64,000 nucleotides of DNA from Escherichia phage vB_EcoM_005. Numbering within the stretch: position 1 is the stretch's first letter; each line of letters opens with the position of its first letter. Both the position numbers and the translations under genes were made by a program. The notes under the pieces are model-generated. The model did no database searches. It was not told the DNA's origin and worked only from the letters and a program-made list of their open reading frames with translations. Positions 16,894 to 59,039 of the stretch are shown piece by piece. The stretch lies in sequence record MK295203; one strand, given 5' to 3'.

Positions 16894-19107
16894 TTATGGT
16901 GTTGGGGTTAAAGTCACAAAATCTGACAATAATACCCATGCATTATCAACAAGAACATACGGAAGTCCATCAGCAACTGGAGCCGCTGGCGGACGTTTAC
17001 CAAGTTCAGTTTCTAGTGCAGTGATTTTAGCTTCGGCTGCAGTTAAACGAGTAGTTAATCCTGCCACTTTACCTGATTCAACTTCAACAACACCTAAACG
17101 GGTATCAATAGCCGCTACTTTATCGGATTCACCCTTAACTTCAGCCAATCCAGATTTAAGTGTTACTATATCACCTTCTGCAGTGCCAAGGCGGGTATTA
17201 ATACCTGCTACCTTATCAGATTCGACTTTAACAGCGGCAAGTCCTGTTTCTAAAGTGGTGATTTTACCTTCTGCTGTAGTAACTCTAGTTGTTAAAGGAG
17301 CAATTTTGGCAGTATCAACTTTAATTGCGTTAATTTCACCTTCAGTAGAAGAAACTCGGCCAGTTAAAGAAACGATATCGCCTTTGTTCTTGGTGATATC
17401 CGCTTTAATAGGGGTCAACTGGTTTTCTAAATCGGTTACATCTAAAGCCAGTGCAGTAACATCGTCATCAGTAGTATCTGTCTTAGTTTCAAGAGCAGCA
17501 ATTTTACCGTTAATGGTTACATCACTAGATTCAAGTGCTGTTAAACGACCGTCCTGTTCAACGTCTTTAGCCTTTATAGTAACGATATCTGCTTTAATCT
17601 CACCAACCGAAGTGTTTAATGCACCGGTACGAGTATCAAGAGAAGAAATTGAGGTATCATTATCATCGACTCTAGAAGTTAAAGCGGCCACTTTACCGTT
17701 GGTAACAACCAAATCAGCCTTAACAGATTCTATTTCCGTAGAGCTATTGAGAACCTCTGTCCAAGTAGCATTGCGGCGTGCATAAAGCTTACCATCGGAA
17801 GGGGCATCATTCAACTTACCTAACATCTGGGTTTCTAAAGAAGTAACCGCGTTAATAAGACCACGTTCTTCTACAGTAGTACCGTTAGGGTTGGTCCCGT
17901 CAACCTTATTGGTGAGTTTAAGTAAAGTACCCTTAATACCGGATTGGTTATTTCCAATTTCTACTTGAATATCCTGGATAGATGAAGTAGATTGGTTTGC
18001 TTGGATAATAACGTCATTTAAACGCTTATTAATGGTCCCAGCTGCCGGAGATACTTCACTACCTAAACGGCGGTTGATATCAGTAACTTGGAAACGTAAG
18101 CCATCACTTGAACTAACACCCACTATGGTTTTAAGGTCATTTACATCGGTGCGAAGACCGCTTAAACGTCCATTAATAGAAGTAGGAGTTGATTCAGAAC
18201 CTATTTGGATTTCAATTGATGTTACACGAGGTTTTAAATCAACGTTGACTGAATTTTCTAGGGTAAGAGTTTTGCTTTCTAAAGTAGTTACTCGGTCCTT
18301 TATAGGCATACCGGAGAAATCAATATTGGTCTTAATTTCGTCGATAGACGTATTAAAATTAATTGCCGCCGTTTCTAATGCTGAAATTCGGGTATAAGCA
18401 GGTTGTTTACCTACCGTATCAGAATGCGGGCCAAGTTCAGCACGAATTTCATTTAATTTAATACCTAATTGCCCGACGTCAGAATCTTCATAATTCCTTT
18501 CAAGGGTATCAATGCGAAGACGATGGTCGACCAATTCAGTGGTATTATCAATGATGCGACGTTTCATACCGGTGGCTTCGCTGGTTTCACCTGGAGGCAA
18601 TGGATTGCCATTTATATCCTGGTTTTCATAATGACCTATTTCGGTTTTAAGAAGAACAATATTTTCACGTACAGTTAAATATGGGCCATCTTGTAAAGGG
18701 TCATGGTAACCAACGTCTTCACGCAAGTAATCAAAATTGGTGGTTAACTCATCCAATTTTCCTGTTGTTTCTGAAGTAACCTTTTTAAGGTCTACGATAT
18801 CAACACGGTTTTTCTCAATTTGTTGGATGACGGAAATATCCGTAGCCATTTCTAAGGCATCATTGATATTATTAACGTTTTCTACCAGTTCGTTAACTTT
18901 ATCTGCGGTTTTCAAATCATTCGCATCAAGAGCTTCAACGTTTTTCTGAACTCCTAAAGCAGCAGCGTTCAAATTACCTTCATTGCCGTATTTTGTTTTT
19001 GCTGCAGACATACAATCACCCTCGCGTATCCATTGGATACGCTTTTGAGGAGCATCAGGTACGCCGTCAACAAATGGTAACTCACTAAGTTCCAATTTGT
19101 TAATCAT
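16894..19107 (-). CDS. wac: fibritin (whisker antigen control) with extended coiled coil
   Basis: MINKLELSELPFVDGVPDAPQ... N-terminus like T4 wac, long repetitive coiled-coil segments; 737 aa versus 487 in T4 as recalled. Confidence 0.85.
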   Translation of the reverse strand: MINKLELSELPFVDGVPDAPQKRIQWIREGDCMSAAKTKYGNEGNLNAAALGVQKNVEALDANDLKTADKVNELVENVNNINDALEMATDISVIQQIEKNRVDIVDLKKVTSETTGKLDELTTNFDYLREDVGYHDPLQDGPYLTVRENIVLLKTEIGHYENQDINGNPLPPGETSEATGMKRRIIDNTTELVDHRLRIDTLERNYEDSDVGQLGIKLNEIRAELGPHSDTVGKQPAYTRISALETAAINFNTSIDEIKTNIDFSGMPIKDRVTTLESKTLTLENSVNVDLKPRVTSIEIQIGSESTPTSINGRLSGLRTDVNDLKTIVGVSSSDGLRFQVTDINRRLGSEVSPAAGTINKRLNDVIIQANQSTSSIQDIQVEIGNNQSGIKGTLLKLTNKVDGTNPNGTTVEERGLINAVTSLETQMLGKLNDAPSDGKLYARRNATWTEVLNSSTEIESVKADLVVTNGKVAALTSRVDDNDTSISSLDTRTGALNTSVGEIKADIVTIKAKDVEQDGRLTALESSDVTINGKIAALETKTDTTDDDVTALALDVTDLENQLTPIKADITKNKGDIVSLTGRVSSTEGEINAIKVDTAKIAPLTTRVTTAEGKITTLETGLAAVKVESDKVAGINTRLGTAEGDIVTLKSGLAEVKGESDKVAAIDTRLGVVEVESGKVAGLTTRLTAAEAKITALETELGKRPPAAPVADGLPYVLVDNAWVLLSDFVTLTPTP

Positions 19108-33968: not shown

Positions 33969-34721
33969 TGAAACTAATATCAATTGTAGGAATCAAACGT
34001 AGCGGTAAGGATACCGTTGCTAACTATGTAATCGAAAATATGGATTCGGTAAAATTTCAGCTCGCAGGTCCTATTAAAAAGTATCTGGCCGAAGCCTATG
34101 AATACATCTCTGATGACCCTGTATTCGACCGTAGTTATATGCCTAAACTCGATTTTAACTGTTTTGAAGGTATCGGTTACGACCGTGAAGAAATCCTTCC
34201 TTTAAAACCATATGATGTTATTGATATCTTTGAAAATGCTATTGTCAAATTGAATAATATCCTTCCTATTCCAGGAATGGACGTTCGTACCGCATATCAT
34301 TATGGTCTTACCCCAGTCCAGTATCTGTCTGAAGAAACAAAAGACCGACTGTTTGAAGTAATAAATAAAAATAACAATTGGTCAGTACGTCGTCTCATGC
34401 AGACCCTTGGGACTGATATTATTGTTAACCAATTTGATAAGATGTATTGGGTTAAGTTGTTCGCTTTAGACTATTTTGATAAAATATACTCTGATGCGAA
34501 ATACTATGTCGTACCTGATGTTCGTCAAACACACGAAATTGATTCGCTCAGAGCGATGGGTGCTACGATTATTCATGTAGTTCGCGCTGAAACCGGTCAA
34601 GTACAAGACTCGCACATCACTGAAGCGGGTCTACCAATTTTACCTGGTGACGTTGTTGTTGAAAATAACGGCACTCTTTCTGAACTATACACCACTATTG
34701 ATAAATTATTAGGAAATAAAA

Positions 34722-35428: not shown

Positions 35429-35468
35429 GTTTACAAGGTCTATAGGCATGATACTATAGACCTATCAA
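35429..35468 (+). promoter_or_regulatory. early promoter cassette (PeSL-like)
   Basis: GTTTAC, spacer AAGGTCTATAGGCA, TGATACTATAGACCTATCAA; spacer AGGTCTATAG pairs with CTATAGACCT. Confidence 0.6.
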
Positions 35469-35995: not shown

Positions 35996-36038
35996 GTTTA
36001 CAACGGGCTCTAGTGGTGATACTATAGCCCTATCAAAA
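35996..36038 (+). promoter_or_regulatory. early promoter cassette (PeSL-like)
   Basis: GTTTAC...TGATACTATAGCCCTATCAAAACAA followed by GGAGAATAAAATG leader. Confidence 0.55.
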
Positions 36039-36629: not shown

Positions 36630-36914
36630 ATGCTATACGTTAAGGTTACTAATCCAGAGAATGGCTATAACTCCGATCAGGTTGCAGCTGAGTTGTTGAT
36701 TCGCAATTATGGCAAAGATGCTGTTCTTGATGTTCAACAGGTTAATATAGGACGTAGTTCAAGCGATGTTAAGCTCAAAGTTAACAGCCATCGTTATAAT
36801 TCTGTTAACTTTACTTTTTATACCGCAACTGAAAACGGATTGGTCGAATACGACATCTTTAAAAATCCTTTGAAGATTGCTTCTATTAAACTTGATTACA
36901 TTAATATGCTTTAA
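36630..36914 (+). CDS. hypothetical protein (94 aa)
   Basis: TAAATG coupling with previous ORF. Confidence 0.55.
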   Translation: MLYVKVTNPENGYNSDQVAAELLIRNYGKDAVLDVQQVNIGRSSSDVKLKVNSHRYNSVNFTFYTATENGLVEYDIFKNPLKIASIKLDYINML

Positions 36915-37738: not shown

Positions 37739-37746
37739 TATAAATA
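37739..37746 (+). promoter_or_regulatory. late promoter TATAAATA
   Basis: TATAAATA 29 nt upstream of internal-protein-like gene 37775. Confidence 0.5.
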
Positions 37747-39235: not shown

Positions 39236-39266
39236 GTTTACAACCCTCAGAGGACAGGGTATAATG
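39236..39266 (+). promoter_or_regulatory. early promoter (GTTTAC / TATAAT)
   Basis: GTTTAC 39236-39241, 18-nt spacer, GGTATAAT. Confidence 0.5.
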
Positions 39267-39307
39267 TCCTCATGGATTATAAATCTTAACCAACTGAAGG
39301 AAATACT

Positions 39308-44473: not shown

Positions 44474-44514
44474 GTTTACAAGGTCTATAGGTGTGATACT
44501 ATAGACCTATCAAA
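44474..44514 (+). promoter_or_regulatory. early promoter cassette (PeSL-like)
   Basis: Near-identical to the 35429 cassette. Confidence 0.6.
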
Positions 44515-46619: not shown

Positions 46620-46649
46620 TATAAATACCTCCTATACTCAGGAGGTATT
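46620..46649 (+). promoter_or_regulatory. late promoter TATAAATA plus RBS-sequestering hairpin of gene e
   Basis: TATAAATA 46620-46627; hairpin ACCTCC-TATACTCA-GGAGGT (46627-46646) contains the e Shine-Dalgarno. Confidence 0.6.
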
Positions 46650-47081
46650 ATGGATATTTTTGATATGTTACGTCAAGACGAAGGTCTTGATTTAAATCTT
46701 TATAAAGACACTGAAGGTTATTGGACTATTGGTATTGGCCAATTGATTACTAAGAACCCTTCTAAAGATGTTGCTCGTGCTGAACTTGATAAGCTTATGG
46801 GTCGAGTTTGTAATGGTCGTATTACTATGGCTGAAGCTGAACAACTCTTTAACCGATCGGTTGAAAATGCTCGTAGAGCTATTCTGCGTAATCCTAAATT
46901 GAAACCTGTTTATGATGTACTGGACGAAGTTCGTCGTTGTGCTTTAATTAACATGGTCTTCCAAATGGGTGAAGCAGGCGTAGCAGGGTTCACTAACTCT
47001 TTACGTATGCTCCAACAGAAACGTTGGAACGATGCGGCAGTTAACCTGGTTTATCGCAGAGAATGTAATTCCTGCATCTAA
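46650..47081 (+). CDS. e: lysozyme (endolysin) e, C-terminally truncated
   Basis: [33 protein letters not shown]... matches T4 lysozyme to ...AAVNL then diverges and stops (143 aa versus 164). Confidence 0.85.
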
Positions 47082-48440: not shown

Positions 48441-48443
48441 CAG

Positions 48444-50262: not shown

Positions 50263-50473
50263 ATTGACAATTGAAGGCTCTGATGAAGCTCTGAAGATGT
50301 TTGTTGACTGGTTCCACGAACAGGGCGAACAAGGCTTTTTGGAATGTTGGGATGGCGGACAATGGAATGGTAAAGAAATTGTTTACCCGACTACGTATAT
50401 CTCTGTTCGTGGTGGATATGACGGCCTTCATTTGGTTGAATACGATATTGCATCTGATGAGGAAGTGAAATGA
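50255..50473 (+). CDS. hypothetical acidic protein (72 aa)
   Basis: Translationally coupled small ORF. Confidence 0.5.
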   Translation: MSKLTIEGSDEALKMFVDWFHEQGEQGFLECWDGGQWNGKEIVYPTTYISVRGGYDGLHLVEYDIASDEEVK

Positions 50474-50748
50474 TTGAAGATATTAAGGGTTATAAGCCGC
50501 ATACCGACGATAAAATCAGTAAAGTGAACGCTATCAAAGATGCCGAAGTTCGATTAGGGCTAATCTTTAAAGCCTTGGAAGAAGAATATGTTGAAGCCTT
50601 TACATGCTCGGGTGTTGATAAAATGAGTGATGAAGAATTCAACCTCACCCATGAACGCCTAGCCCAGATTCGTACGGCAATAGAACGCTTGAAAGAAGCA
50701 AGCATGTGGGCGTGTCGTTCCGTTTTCCAACCCGAGGAAAAATACTAA
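50470..50748 (+). CDS. hypothetical protein (92 aa), T4 vs.3-vs.6 position
   Basis: Immediately upstream of regB; no recognisable motif. Confidence 0.5.
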   Translation: MIEDIKGYKPHTDDKISKVNAIKDAEVRLGLIFKALEEEYVEAFTCSGVDKMSDEEFNLTHERLAQIRTAIERLKEASMWACRSVFQPEEKY

Positions 50749-50753
50749 AAGCA

Positions 50754-50796
50754 GTTTACATCTCCTGTAGACGTGATACTATAAACCTATCAACTA
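50754..50796 (+). promoter_or_regulatory. early promoter cassette with SD-sequestering inverted repeat
   Basis: GTTTAC, spacer ATCTCCTGTAG, TGATACTATAAACCTATCAA, then CTACAGGAGAT (perfect 11-bp complement holding the regB SD). Confidence 0.65.
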
Positions 50797-50810
50797 CAGG
50801 AGATTACAAA

Positions 50811-51269
50811 ATGTCAGAAATTAATTCAGAAGTATTCATCCGCCGCAACAAATTACGTCGTCAGTTCGAAACCGAATTCCGTGAACTGAATGCGTCCATC
50901 AAAAAAGCCGCCATTAAGAGCGGAGTCCCAGCCTTCTTTATTAAGTACTCTAATCACTTGTTGGACCGTGCTATCCAACGTGAAATCGACGAAAAATACG
51001 TTTTTGCTTTATTCAAGCAACTCCATAACCATGTTAAAGAAATCCACGAATTCTTAATCCAGGAACCTCTGCCTGATGTAGAATCCGAAATTGTCCCTGG
51101 TAAAGTGTATCGTCCATTGCGTCTCGAAATTACCGATAAAACCTTATGGCTAGGTATGACAGTAGACCGTAAACATCCTGATAAAGGATATTCCCTTAAA
51201 TGCCGTATGGCATTTGTTAACTCTAAACGTTTAGAAGGTAAAACCAGCACGAAAGTAATCTATCTTTAA
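50811..51269 (+). CDS. regB: RegB endoribonuclease
   Basis: MSEINSEVFIRRNKLRRQFETEFRE...YSNHLLDRAIQREIDEKYVF... matches T4 RegB. Confidence 0.85.
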   Translation: MSEINSEVFIRRNKLRRQFETEFRELNASIKKAAIKSGVPAFFIKYSNHLLDRAIQREIDEKYVFALFKQLHNHVKEIHEFLIQEPLPDVESEIVPGKVYRPLRLEITDKTLWLGMTVDRKHPDKGYSLKCRMAFVNSKRLEGKTSTKVIYL

Positions 51270-54436: not shown

Positions 54437-54441
54437 TCAAA

Positions 54442-54466
54442 GGTCCCACTTCGGTGGGACCTTTTT
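54442..54466 (+). terminator. rho-independent terminator
   Basis: GGTCCCAC-TTCG-GTGGGACC followed by TTTTT. Confidence 0.7.
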
Positions 54467-54475
54467 CGTTTAGGT

Positions 54476-54517
54476 GTTTACATCCTCTAGGAACATGATA
54501 CTATAGACCTATCAACT
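54476..54517 (+). promoter_or_regulatory. early promoter cassette (PeSL-like)
   Basis: GTTTACATCCTCTAGGAACATGATACTATAGACCTATCAACTAATGAGGAG. Confidence 0.6.
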
Positions 54518-57115: not shown

Positions 57116-57118
57116 TAA

Positions 57119-57138
57119 AAGGCCTTCGGGCCTTTTTT
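57119..57138 (+). terminator. rho-independent terminator
   Basis: GGCC-TTCG-GGCC followed by TTTTTT. Confidence 0.65.
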
Positions 57139-57157: not shown

Positions 57158-57200
57158 GTTTACACCCTCGTAGAGCATGTTATTATGGACCTATCAAATC
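57158..57200 (+). promoter_or_regulatory. early promoter cassette (variant)
   Basis: GTTTACACCCTCGTAGAGCATGTTATTATGGACCTATCAAATC. Confidence 0.5.
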
Positions 57201-57223: not shown

Positions 57224-58204
57224 ATGTTAACTATCAAAATCAACAAAGGTATCTATCGCGGTAATGAAATCTCTGGTACGTTCATGAGTTCAGGTAAAAC
57301 CTGGTTCCCTAATAAAATTCATGAATCCGAAGCTCACCTCGGTGACGGCAAGGTATTCGTACAGATTGATGGTGTTGAACGTGGTGTATGGGTGTTCAAA
57401 TGTGACGTTGAAACGGAAGGTGCTGAAGCTCCTGTAGTGGTTACTGAATCCGCTGAAGAAATGAAGCATCGCATCAACAAACGTTTTAAAGTAATGAACA
57501 TGATGACTAACGGAATCATCGATGGTAAAATTCGTTCCCTTATCATCTCTGGTGCCGCAGGTATTGGTAAAACGTATTCTTTGGATAAAGCATTACAAAA
57601 TGCCCACGAAAATGAAACTATCGAATATAAATCAATCAACGGAAAGATTAGTGGAATCGGTCTTTACGAGCAGCTTTGGAATAACCGCGGCCCTAATAGT
57701 GTTCTTCTTATCGATGATGTTGATGTATTCTCTGATATGGATATCCTGAACCTGTTAAAAGCAGCATTGGATACCGGTGAAAAACGTAAGGTGTGCTGGA
57801 GCACTTCAAGTTCTTACCTCGATGATAAAAATATCGATAAAGAATTCGAATACGAAGGCACCATCGTGTTCATCACCAACGTTGATATTGACCGTGAATT
57901 AGAGCGTGGAACTAAACTTGCTCCACACCTCCAGGCTTTAGTATCTCGTTCAGTTTACTTAGACCTCGGAGTTCACTCGAACGAAGAGATTATGGTTCGT
58001 GTTGAAGACGTTATCCTGTCCACTGATATGATGCAAAATCGAGGTCTGACTGATGCTGAGACTTATCAAGCTTTAGCATGGATGAAGGCTAATGTATCTC
58101 GTCTTCGTAACGTATCATTACGTACAGCTCTTTATCTGGCAGACTTCATTGCCACCGATAAAAATGACTGGAACGAAATCGCTGAAGTTACACTTCTGAA
58201 ATAA
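57224..58204 (+). CDS. AAA+-type ATPase (326 aa)
   Basis: Walker A GAAGIGKT, Walker B VLLIDDVD; ATG after GGAG; ORF track extends upstream from TTG 57137. Confidence 0.65.
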   Translation: MLTIKINKGIYRGNEISGTFMSSGKTWFPNKIHESEAHLGDGKVFVQIDGVERGVWVFKCDVETEGAEAPVVVTESAEEMKHRINKRFKVMNMMTNGIIDGKIRSLIISGAAGIGKTYSLDKALQNAHENETIEYKSINGKISGIGLYEQLWNNRGPNSVLLIDDVDVFSDMDILNLLKAALDTGEKRKVCWSTSSSYLDDKNIDKEFEYEGTIVFITNVDIDRELERGTKLAPHLQALVSRSVYLDLGVHSNEEIMVRVEDVILSTDMMQNRGLTDAETYQALAWMKANVSRLRNVSLRTALYLADFIATDKNDWNEIAEVTLLK

Positions 58205-58214
58205 AGGTGAAATT

Positions 58215-58556
58215 ATGTTCGAACAATTTAGTTACGACCTTATAAAAGCAGAGTTGAAGTACTCTAATGCCATGAAACAGTCCGTCGAGGACTATGATAA
58301 TGAATTTAAATACAAATTCGCCGAGAAGGTTTATAAAACTGATTGTGAAGAAGGAGACTATAAGAGACTGGCCTTGGCAGCTAAGACTCAGGCCTTAATA
58401 AATCTAGACCGCAAACAGGTAAAGTTGGCAGGCGACTTCCGAGGTGAACTCTGCGCCATCAGGAATGAATACCTTATTCGTATTAAACACCAACGGAAAG
58501 AGAACACCCAATCTGCGTGGTTTAGTGGACAATCAGGTGAAAAAAGTTTCTATTAG
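58215..58556 (+). CDS. hypothetical protein (113 aa)
   Basis: ATG after AAGGTG. Confidence 0.5.
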   Translation: MFEQFSYDLIKAELKYSNAMKQSVEDYDNEFKYKFAEKVYKTDCEEGDYKRLALAAKTQALINLDRKQVKLAGDFRGELCAIRNEYLIRIKHQRKENTQSAWFSGQSGEKSFY

Positions 58557-58557
58557 T

Positions 58558-58600
58558 TGTTTACATCTCCAGTAGAAATGATACTATAGACCTATCAACT
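58558..58600 (+). promoter_or_regulatory. early promoter cassette with SD-sequestering inverted repeat
   Basis: GTTTAC, spacer ATCTCCAGTAG, TGATACTATAGACCTATCAA, then CTACTGGAGG. Confidence 0.6.
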
Positions 58601-58613
58601 ACTGGAGGTTATC

Positions 58614-59039
58614 ATGAACGCTAAAGATATTTTTTCACTGATTAATTTCAACAACGGTAATTTCAAATCTGAAAAACAAAGCAAGTTCTTTAACGACGTT
58701 GCTTGTGGTAATGAGATTACCGTATCTGGAGGAGAGATTTACAAAAGCCGTTGGAACTGGATTGTTATCATCGATTCAGTTGGTATTGTAGAGCTCTATA
58801 AAAATACTAACAAAAAACGTACTCTTCACTGGAGTCGTGAAACCAATCAATCTTATCAAGCTGAACGTAACAAACGTTTAATGCCTACTGAATCTGACCT
58901 GGCAAATGTTAAATCTGATATCGCTTATTTCGATAATCTGATTGCCGAGGAACAAGCGGTTATTGATAAGTTTGACGAAATCAAAGCTTGTAAAGAGATT
59001 CCTGAATTCATGGAGCGTTTAAAGACGGTTCTCGCATAA
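58614..59039 (+). CDS. hypothetical protein (141 aa)
   Basis: ATG after GGAGG. Confidence 0.55.
   Translation: MNAKDIFSLINFNNGNFKSEKQSKFFNDVACGNEITVSGGEIYKSRWNWIVIIDSVGIVELYKNTNKKRTLHWSRETNQSYQAERNKRLMPTESDLANVKSDIAYFDNLIAEEQAVIDKFDEIKACKEIPEFMERLKTVLA

Follow-up and report, generated by a model that had tools for sequence, protein, structure and literature searches.

Escherichia phage vB_EcoM_005 (sequence record MK295203) carries, at the start of the endoribonuclease gene regB, an inverted repeat that joins the promoter of the gene to its Shine-Dalgarno (SD) sequence, and this repeat was analysed within a stretch of 64,000 nucleotides of the phage DNA, here called the window. The gene order annotated near regB is vs.7, vs.4, regB, vs.1, vs, tk.4 ... 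tk. The 3-kb stretch around regB is 94–97% identical to JS98/IME08-type coliphages, and the window is that of a JS98/IME08-like T4-type phage of the genus Dhakavirus, Straboviridae. Between ~35 kb and 61 kb it contains 14 T4-type early-promoter cassettes on the + strand, with the layout GTTTAC, 17 or 18 nt, (TG)nTACTAT, AGACCTATCAA..., SD and ATG and a shared stretch TGATACTAT-AGACCTATCAA; the pattern GTTTAC-N16-18-TANNNT has 15 matches in the window, against 2.65 expected.

A perfect inverted repeat links the regB promoter and the regB SD

The regB promoter, GTTTAC-N17-TACTAT with an upstream TG, is of the T4 early type and is neither a late nor a middle promoter. The original prediction, made from this DNA alone, held that its spacer (50760–50770) is the exact reverse complement of the SD-bearing segment at 50794–50804, and this is borne out: ATCTCCTGTAG and CTACAGGAGAT form a perfect 11-bp inverted repeat. 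When the spacer of the regB cassette was shuffled, a run of at least 11 arose in 2.5e-5 of trials. The 3' arm sits 12–22 nt past the -10, on the SD, and the loop is 23 nt long. The SD had been placed 7 nt ahead of the ATG at 50811, a distance that holds for the end of GGAGA, while GGAG itself ends 8 nt ahead. The GenBank record of IME08 (our label L043) begins regB at an in-frame upstream GTG (16927–17478, 183 aa; window equivalent 50706–51269), which would fall inside vs.4 and span the promoter. The SD and the homology to T4 RegB indicate that the true start is the ATG at 50811, giving a protein of 152 aa.

Fold predictions pair all four bases of the regB GGAG with the spacer in both the minimum free energy (MFE) and the centroid structures, in 60-nt as well as 151-nt folds, and assign -18.9 kcal/mol to the hairpin core. 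Folded within 151 nt of context, regB (z = -2.3) and a second cassette at 58559 (z = -4.4) both show the hairpin in MFE and centroid structures alike. RNA from the predicted start at ~50789 is unstructured (-4.6 kcal/mol, z = -0.1), and it is on this proximal RNA only that the regB GGAG is single-stranded in the predicted folds.

In a terminator scan, the stretch from the upstream early promoters (48443 and 48906) to the regB promoter at 50754 was free of intrinsic terminators, as was that between the 58559 cassette and its upstream early promoters, so that read-through into regB would be expected. A middle or late promoter near regB was sought as a later source of read-through; candidates of MotA type turned up only at 36905 and 40743, late boxes only at 37739, 46620 and 53775, and no TATAAATA or MotA box lies close to regB. 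The regB hairpin itself was rejected as an intrinsic terminator, given its 23-nt loop and its tail UACAAAAUG with no U-tract, and it is missing from the calls of the scan. The possibility of an RNase III site was likewise put aside, as stems of 11–17 bp are short for this enzyme. The positions of these and other features are collected in Table 1.

Table 1 Features of the regB element, related cassettes and lineage-specific regB arms (window coordinates unless T4 is named).
Feature	Position	Strand	Remarks
-35 GTTTAC, T4-type early promoter of regB	50754–50759	+	pattern match
5' arm ATCTCCTGTAG, first 11 nt of the 17-nt promoter spacer	50760–50770	+	on upstream-derived RNA only
Extended -10, TG-a-TACTAT	50774–50782 (TG 50774–50775; TACTAT 50777–50782)	+	inside hairpin loop
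Predicted transcription start, A, 7 nt past the -10	50789	+	inferred from T4 early-promoter geometry
3' arm CTACAGGAGAT, regB SD and potential RegB cleavage motif GGAG (50799–50802)	50794–50804	+	sequence, fold
regB, site-specific endoribonuclease, 152 aa	50811–51269 (stop codon included)	+	Pfam PF10715, E = 5e-69
vs.4 homologue (Acb2/Tad1-type)	50470–50748	+	stop TAA 50746–50748, 5 nt ahead of the regB -35; proposed source of read-through RNA
Second early promoter, same cassette type	58559–58587	+	-35 58559–58564; 5' arm ATCTCCAGTAG 58565–58575; -10 TACTAT 58582–58587
3' arm CTACTGGAGGT with SD of the nrdC.8-like gene	58599–58609	+	11 pairs with 58565–58575, one U.G
nrdC.8-like open reading frame, 141 aa	58614–59039	+	70% identical to T4 NrdC.8
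Gene e hairpin	TATAAATA at 46620		CCTCC 46628–46632 pairs with SD GGAGG 46641–46645, followed by the ATG of a T4-lysozyme-like open reading frame
Spacer x -10/+1 repeats	35436/35454 (35436–35463); 44481/44499 (44481–44508); 36005/36026 (36005–36030); 39250/39266 (39250–39271)		
SD-occluding cassettes of T4	regB 62797; denV 65413; dexA 8218; nrdC.8 53943		T4 coordinates
regB arms, Dhakavirus			ATCTCCTGTAG / CTACAGGAGAT; 11 pairs
regB arms, L019 group			ATCTCCTTTTAGT / ACTAAAAGGAGAT; 13 pairs
regB arms, L027			ATCCTCATTTG / CAAATGAGGAT; 11 pairs (17 with one mismatch)
regB arms, RB69 / Av-05			TTCTCCTCTAGTTG / CAACTAGAGGAGAA; 14 pairs
regB arms, STML-198			TTTCTCCTCTTTATG / CATAAAGAGGAGAAA; 15 pairs
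regB arms, T4			TTTTCCTCTTGACTG / CAGTTAAGAGGAGAA; 15 pairs, two G.U
regB arms, Citrobacter CF1 / Moon			TCTCCTGTAAG(T) / (A)CTTACAGGAGA, also given as TCTCCTGTAAGT / ACTTACAGGAGA; 11–12 pairs
regB hairpin, L031			9 pairs
regB hairpin, Pectobacterium PM2			8–9 pairs
regB hairpin, L029			7–8 pairs
regB hairpin, Yersinia MHG19			15 pairs, extends into the -35

Conservation of the pairing across T4-type phages

We compared the regB upstream regions of 42 IMG/VR contigs, of T4, RB69, RB49, Aeromonas phages 31 and Asfd_1 and Yersinia MHG19, and of six further Dhakavirus genomes. Of 17 lineage types with a regB promoter of their own, at least 11 pair the spacer with the regB SD region, and the arms of different lineages diverge outside the CTCC/GGAG core (Table 1). 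Helix positions 5, 7, 8 and 9, indexed from the GGAG core, each show three to four pair types. Across 15 lineage types the cognate spacer/leader energies sum to -248 kcal/mol, compared with -158 ± 11 kcal/mol when partners were permuted, and 0 of 100,000 permutations reached so low a sum. By this comparison the spacer/SD pairing at regB is kept across most T4-type lineages through compensatory changes. Within the genus, the 11 spacer positions that form the arm are constant in 13 Dhakavirus genomes while four of the six other spacer positions vary (p = 0.0063); judged by this difference, the 5' arm is under purifying selection within Dhakavirus. Taken together, the comparative data favour a selected structure at regB.

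Other lineages differ in several ways. In Karamvirus-type and Klebsiella-type phages the regB leader has a composite predicted fold, with an inner stem over the -10 and an outer stem of 5–7 bp on the SD. RB49 regB has no separate promoter, and in Aeromonas phages 31 and Asfd_1 regB is preceded by a strong terminator and then a promoter, with no hairpin.

Cognate specificity and a second site at the nrdC.8-like gene

The same arrangement had been claimed for three further cassettes of the window, one at 58558 and, more weakly, those at 54476 and 57158. To control for shared motif content, which this procedure keeps, the spacer of each cassette was paired with the SD region of every other cassette, giving 156 non-cognate combinations. 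The cognate duplexes at 50754 (-17.7 kcal/mol) and 58559 (-17.3 kcal/mol) lie below the non-cognate minimum of -15.9 kcal/mol (n = 156), and these are the only two cassettes in the window that outdo all non-cognate combinations. The duplexes at 54476 (-8.1 kcal/mol) and 57158 (-4.0 kcal/mol) are equalled or beaten by 27% and 70% of the non-cognate pairs, respectively, and the predicted pairing at 57158 leaves the SD untouched. The two weaker sites do not rise above chance and were rejected as SD-hiding sites; both follow strong UUCG-loop intrinsic terminators (54439–54464 and 57117–57136). Terminator-preceded cassettes of T4 (58780, 15288 and 55384) and those at regB of the Aeromonas phages are likewise devoid of a strong promoter-embedded hairpin.

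At the second site the pairing is present as claimed, with the correction that the promoter starts at 58559 and not at 58558. As RNA, ATCTCCAGTAG and CTACTGGAGGT form a helix of 11 pairs, made up of nine Watson-Crick pairs plus one U.G and one A-U, and the -35 begins 2 nt past the stop codon (58554–58556) of an upstream DUF7203 open reading frame. The nrdC.8 cassettes of T4 type hide their SD through unrelated arms, CTGTTCCTCTGTGG / CTACGGAGGAACAG, which form 13–15 pairs with two G.U, and in some strains the nrdC.8 hairpin gains two extra pairs through changes on both sides. The feature at regB and nrdC.8 is real, non-random and evolutionarily maintained. The window also has an outer helix at this locus, between 58531–58545 and 58630–58645, in which the last DUF7203 codons (GGTGAAAAAAG...) pair with codons 6–11 of the nrdC.8-like gene (...TATTTTTTCAC); it encloses promoter, SD and ATG, is kept in five Dhakavirus genomes and is absent from T4.

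Other early cassettes and their shuffling

In the first 77 kb of T4, four of 25 cassettes beat the swap null, those of regB, nrdC.8, denV and dexA, and in the window two of 13 do. The SD-occluding arrangement is therefore used by a minority of early cassettes and is gene-specific, not a general property of the cassette promoter; across lineages, SD occlusion is found in 11 of 17 lineage types at regB and in 4 of 36 other early cassettes (Fisher 1e-4). The original prediction had spoken of the cassette promoter in general, and two of the four sites that it cited score at chance level. Three of the four T4 early genes with an SD-occluding hairpin encode nucleases (RegB, endonuclease V and exonuclease A), a bias in a small sample that recalls the ribosome-binding-site (RBS) sequestration of homing endonucleases.

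The remaining cassettes include several with a different pairing. In those at 35429, 44474, 35996 and 39236 of the window the spacer forms a repeat with the -10/+1 region, for example AGGTCTATAG / CTATAGACCT, and leaves the SD free. T4 has spacer x +1 repeats at 57990, 65799, 73939 and 20612, of which those at 57990 and 65799 have 13–14 bp. These cassettes fit the published type of PeSL (promoter-early stem-loop) whose stem overlaps the -10.

Comparison of the regB cassette (window 50754–50810) with T4 (NC_000866, ~65413–65355, minus strand) revealed that the T4 denV cassette has nearly the same sequence, GTTTAC ATCTCCTGTAG ... TACTAT AGACCTATCAA CTACAGGAGA. In the window itself, denV has an unrelated promoter, at 48443, with no such repeat. 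As the T4 denV cassette matches regB of the window and not its denV, whole cassettes have moved between genes. Two different upstream sequences precede the regB cassette within Dhakavirus, and these variable neighbours, with the denV/regB match, are evidence of cassette shuffling.

Relation to known systems

Hairpins that sequester an RBS are well documented in T4. Experiments have established for e, soc, 49 and I-TevI that long transcripts are translationally silent and that transcripts from a proximal promoter, which lack the 5' strand of the hairpin, are translated (PMC3014915, PMC2988022); similar hairpins occur in I-TevII, I-TevIII and segB of T4 and in mobE of Aeh1 (PMC3014915, PMC2988022). 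As in this class, where the SD, the AUG or both are paired, the regB SD is predicted to lie in a helix whose 5' strand precedes the start of gene-proximal transcription. A 2010 review states that the genes using the mechanism "are all late genes" (PMC2988022). Unlike the genes of that class, in which the embedded promoter is late (gp55, TATAAATA) or middle and translation is delayed until late, regB has a sigma-70-type early promoter, and its 5' arm is the -35/-10 spacer itself, which would confine translation to the first minutes. The regB element thus shares the structural features of the e/soc class and departs from it in promoter type and temporal logic. The window holds an example of the known principle as well, the gene e (lysozyme) hairpin at 46620–46652, ~4 kb upstream of regB.

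The second group for comparison is that of the PeSL cassettes of RB49/phi1, PST/T4 and nt-1/KVP40, with which the regB cassette shares repeated early promoters, AT-rich upstream sequence, a stem-loop and an end made of SD and ATG, as well as a setting of hyperplastic early regions and gene shuffling. Published PeSL stems are located in the promoter, upstream of it or immediately behind it, whereas the regB stem ends on the SD. They have been read as terminators or attenuators and as recombination sites, and neither a stem ending on the SD nor a translational role has been described for them (PMC2839356).

The regB SD is also a substrate of the protein that it helps to produce. RegB cleaves its own SD GGAG in vivo, and the GGAG of this early gene is conserved in 35 T4-related phages (PMC3014915); the enzyme acts on single-stranded RNA only, and structure inhibits it (PMC1702504). 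Autoregulation by RegB and the hairpin would both target the same GGAG nucleotides and limit RegB synthesis, but cleavage acts in trans on single-stranded GGAG, whereas the hairpin would act in cis. The context 3' of the regB GGAG (GGAGAUUACAA; AUUACAA, within 50799–50809) carries a U in position 6 and a C in position 9, two features that have been linked to weak cleavage in T4 denV. Since C at position 9 has been blamed for the poor RegB cleavage of T4 denV, self-cleavage may be weaker in vB_EcoM_005 than in T4.

We found no early-promoter version of RBS sequestration in the searchable literature, although some key older papers lie outside its reach. The mechanism is familiar and its setting, an early-promoter cassette of PeSL type, is new. 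The abstract of Valerie et al. from 1986 reportedly mentions potential stem-loops preceding ipII, denV and tk, and the T4 denV hairpin may thus have been seen earlier as a structure, without the reading as an insulator.

A probable promoter-embedded translational insulator

We consider it probable that the regB element is a translational insulator embedded in a promoter, that is, an RBS-sequestering hairpin of the RNA. Established at these loci are the complementarity, its cognate specificity, the compensated conservation, the constraint on the 5' arm, the lack of an intrinsic terminator upstream and the predicted folds; for the start site, the read-through RNA, the hairpin in vivo and the effects on translation and RegB cleavage we infer the following. 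The hairpin would enclose the regB promoter, with the 5' arm in the spacer, the -10, the start site and the first leader bases in the loop, and the SD region as the 3' arm. Polymerases that come in from early genes upstream (denV ... vs.4) would copy both arms, and on this read-through RNA a stem of about -18 kcal/mol would bury the GGAG and prevent ribosomes from initiating on regB. Because RegB needs a single-stranded GGAG, the same RNA would also be closed to the enzyme, and would be both silent and RegB-resistant. RNA from the regB promoter itself would begin ~5 nt ahead of the 3' arm; as its start site lies past the 5' arm, only read-through RNA could hide the SD, and on the proximal RNA the SD would have no partner and would be translated and open to autoregulatory cleavage. 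RegB would then be made only while its own immediate-early promoter fires (2–3 min), whatever the level of read-through. The same device would operate at the nrdC.8-like gene of the window and at regB, nrdC.8, denV and dexA of T4. The original prediction that read-through RNA would hide the SD gains support from the covariation, the 5'-arm constraint, the 151-nt folds and the lack of a terminator upstream; the shielding of the GGAG from RegB and the precedent of the T4 late genes were no part of that prediction.

Several observations weigh against this reading. Three regB lineage types with a promoter of their own and no terminator ahead of it leave the SD unoccluded: L022-24 and L039-40 lack the hairpin, so that an upstream terminator and a hairpin are not strict alternatives, and at L006-8 the spacer pairs with the +1 region. 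The nrdC.8 hairpin of JS98 has one mismatch without compensation. An unbiased count of interior transition mismatches gave G.U 4 vs A.C 2, which is not significant, so the wobble asymmetry is no proof of structure at the level of the sense-strand RNA. The stem could fray at its base when a ribosome terminates 9–11 nt upstream. Moreover, because the SD stays free in many sister cassettes, whose hairpins join the spacer to the +1 region, SD occlusion may be just one special form of a more general role of promoter-embedded hairpins.

The most substantial alternative is a transcriptional one, in which the structure is a PeSL-type stem-loop as described by Arbiol, Comeau and Krisch, that is, an attenuator or insulator of transcription in a mobile cassette shuffled by recombination, and coverage of the SD is incidental. 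The AT-rich upstream region, the early promoter, a stem-loop touching the spacer and the SD and ATG at the 3' end are all present, T4 denV and the window's regB share a cassette that follows two different upstream open reading frames within Dhakavirus, and the sister cassettes carry stems over the -10/+1 as published; one RB49 PeSL stem cut expression of a downstream lacZ like a strong terminator (PMC2839356). At regB, however, the 3' arm has no U-tract behind it (GGAGAUUACAAAAUG), and the scan calls the nearby UUCG terminators and not this hairpin. None of the five published subclasses has its 3' arm on the SD (PMC2839356), and attenuation accounts neither for the recurrence of this placement in 11 or more regB lineages whose flanks are unrelated nor for its gene-specific enrichment. 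We therefore regard this explanation as unlikely. Somewhat less probable still is translational coupling, by which the hairpin would close the regB SD on read-through RNA unless a ribosome finishing vs.4 melts it, and regB translation on long RNA would depend on that of vs.4 instead of being abolished. The upstream stop lies 0–5 nt from the -35 in nearly all lineages and the 5' arm starts 6–11 nt past the stop, which established ribosome geometry would put at the margin of what a terminating ribosome covers. Such a ribosome would nevertheless reach at most the first 1–5 of the 11–17 pairs; general gene packing explains the tight spacing equally well, and coupling gives no reason for a promoter within the hairpin.

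Correction of imperfect palindromes by template switching was reportedly shown first in T4 rIIB, and a palindrome of the DNA without RNA function could arise and be kept perfect by such switching at a quasipalindrome during T4-type replication or recombination, or serve as a protein operator or cruciform. Perfect arms in several lineages would suit this view, and the G.U to A.C ratio of 4 vs 2 is compatible with a strand-symmetric process. We nonetheless hold it to be very improbable: loops of 15–25 nt are poor for cruciform extrusion; the helices of regB and nrdC.8 in T4 depend on two G.U apiece, mismatches at the DNA level; a by-product of neutral mutation would not have put an arm on the SD of one and the same gene again and again; and the constant 5' arm beside a variable rest of the spacer is not accounted for. 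A protein operator in particular was rejected, since the arms differ between genes and between lineages and thus offer no common protein site. Finally, the pairing could be a coincidence of a pyrimidine-rich spacer start (TTTCC or TCTCC after the -35) with a GGAG SD. Among the window's 15 GTTTAC promoters, seven open their spacer with an (A/T)TC(T/C)CC-like run, as do many promoters of T4, and non-cognate pairs reach -8 to -15 kcal/mol through the CTCC/GGAG core; coincidence fully accounts for the pairings at 54476 and 57158. At 50754, at 58559 and in other lineages, by contrast, 7–11 extra cognate-specific pairs flank the core; for the two strong sites of the window the permutation tests refute coincidence, which leaves it with almost no likelihood there.

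Beyond regB, we regard it as possible, though tentatively, that a subset of the mobile PeSL cassettes are self-contained translational insulators in which the promoter spacer doubles as an anti-SD.

Neighbouring features

The vs.4 homologue upstream of regB matches the Pfam Acb2/Tad1 hairpin domain (E = 5e-16) of the anti-CBASS/Thoeris nucleotide-sponge family. An Rfam scan of positions 34000–64000 returned two tRNAs and otherwise no family. The tRNA genes (RF00005; 37316–37389 and 37398–37469) lie in the early region and adjoin a terminator, which is followed by the late-promoter box at 37739.

Implications

If translational insulation by the promoter spacer is correct, a gene driven by such a cassette would be translated from its own transcripts only and would be blind to the heavy read-through of densely packed early regions, and part of the function of the PeSL stem-loop would be translational and not transcriptional control. 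Such compact insulation of genes in polycistronic arrays would be of interest for phage engineering and synthetic biology. Selection for it would be strongest on nucleases, namely regB in at least 11 lineages and denV and dexA in T4. The placing of a promoter within an RBS hairpin would extend beyond late genes and would fit into a 17-bp sigma-70 spacer. RegB shuts down T4 early messages, and reviews emphasise the tight control of its production; an anti-SD inside the promoter would explain, in cis and on top of the known self-cleavage, why RegB is made in a brief pulse.

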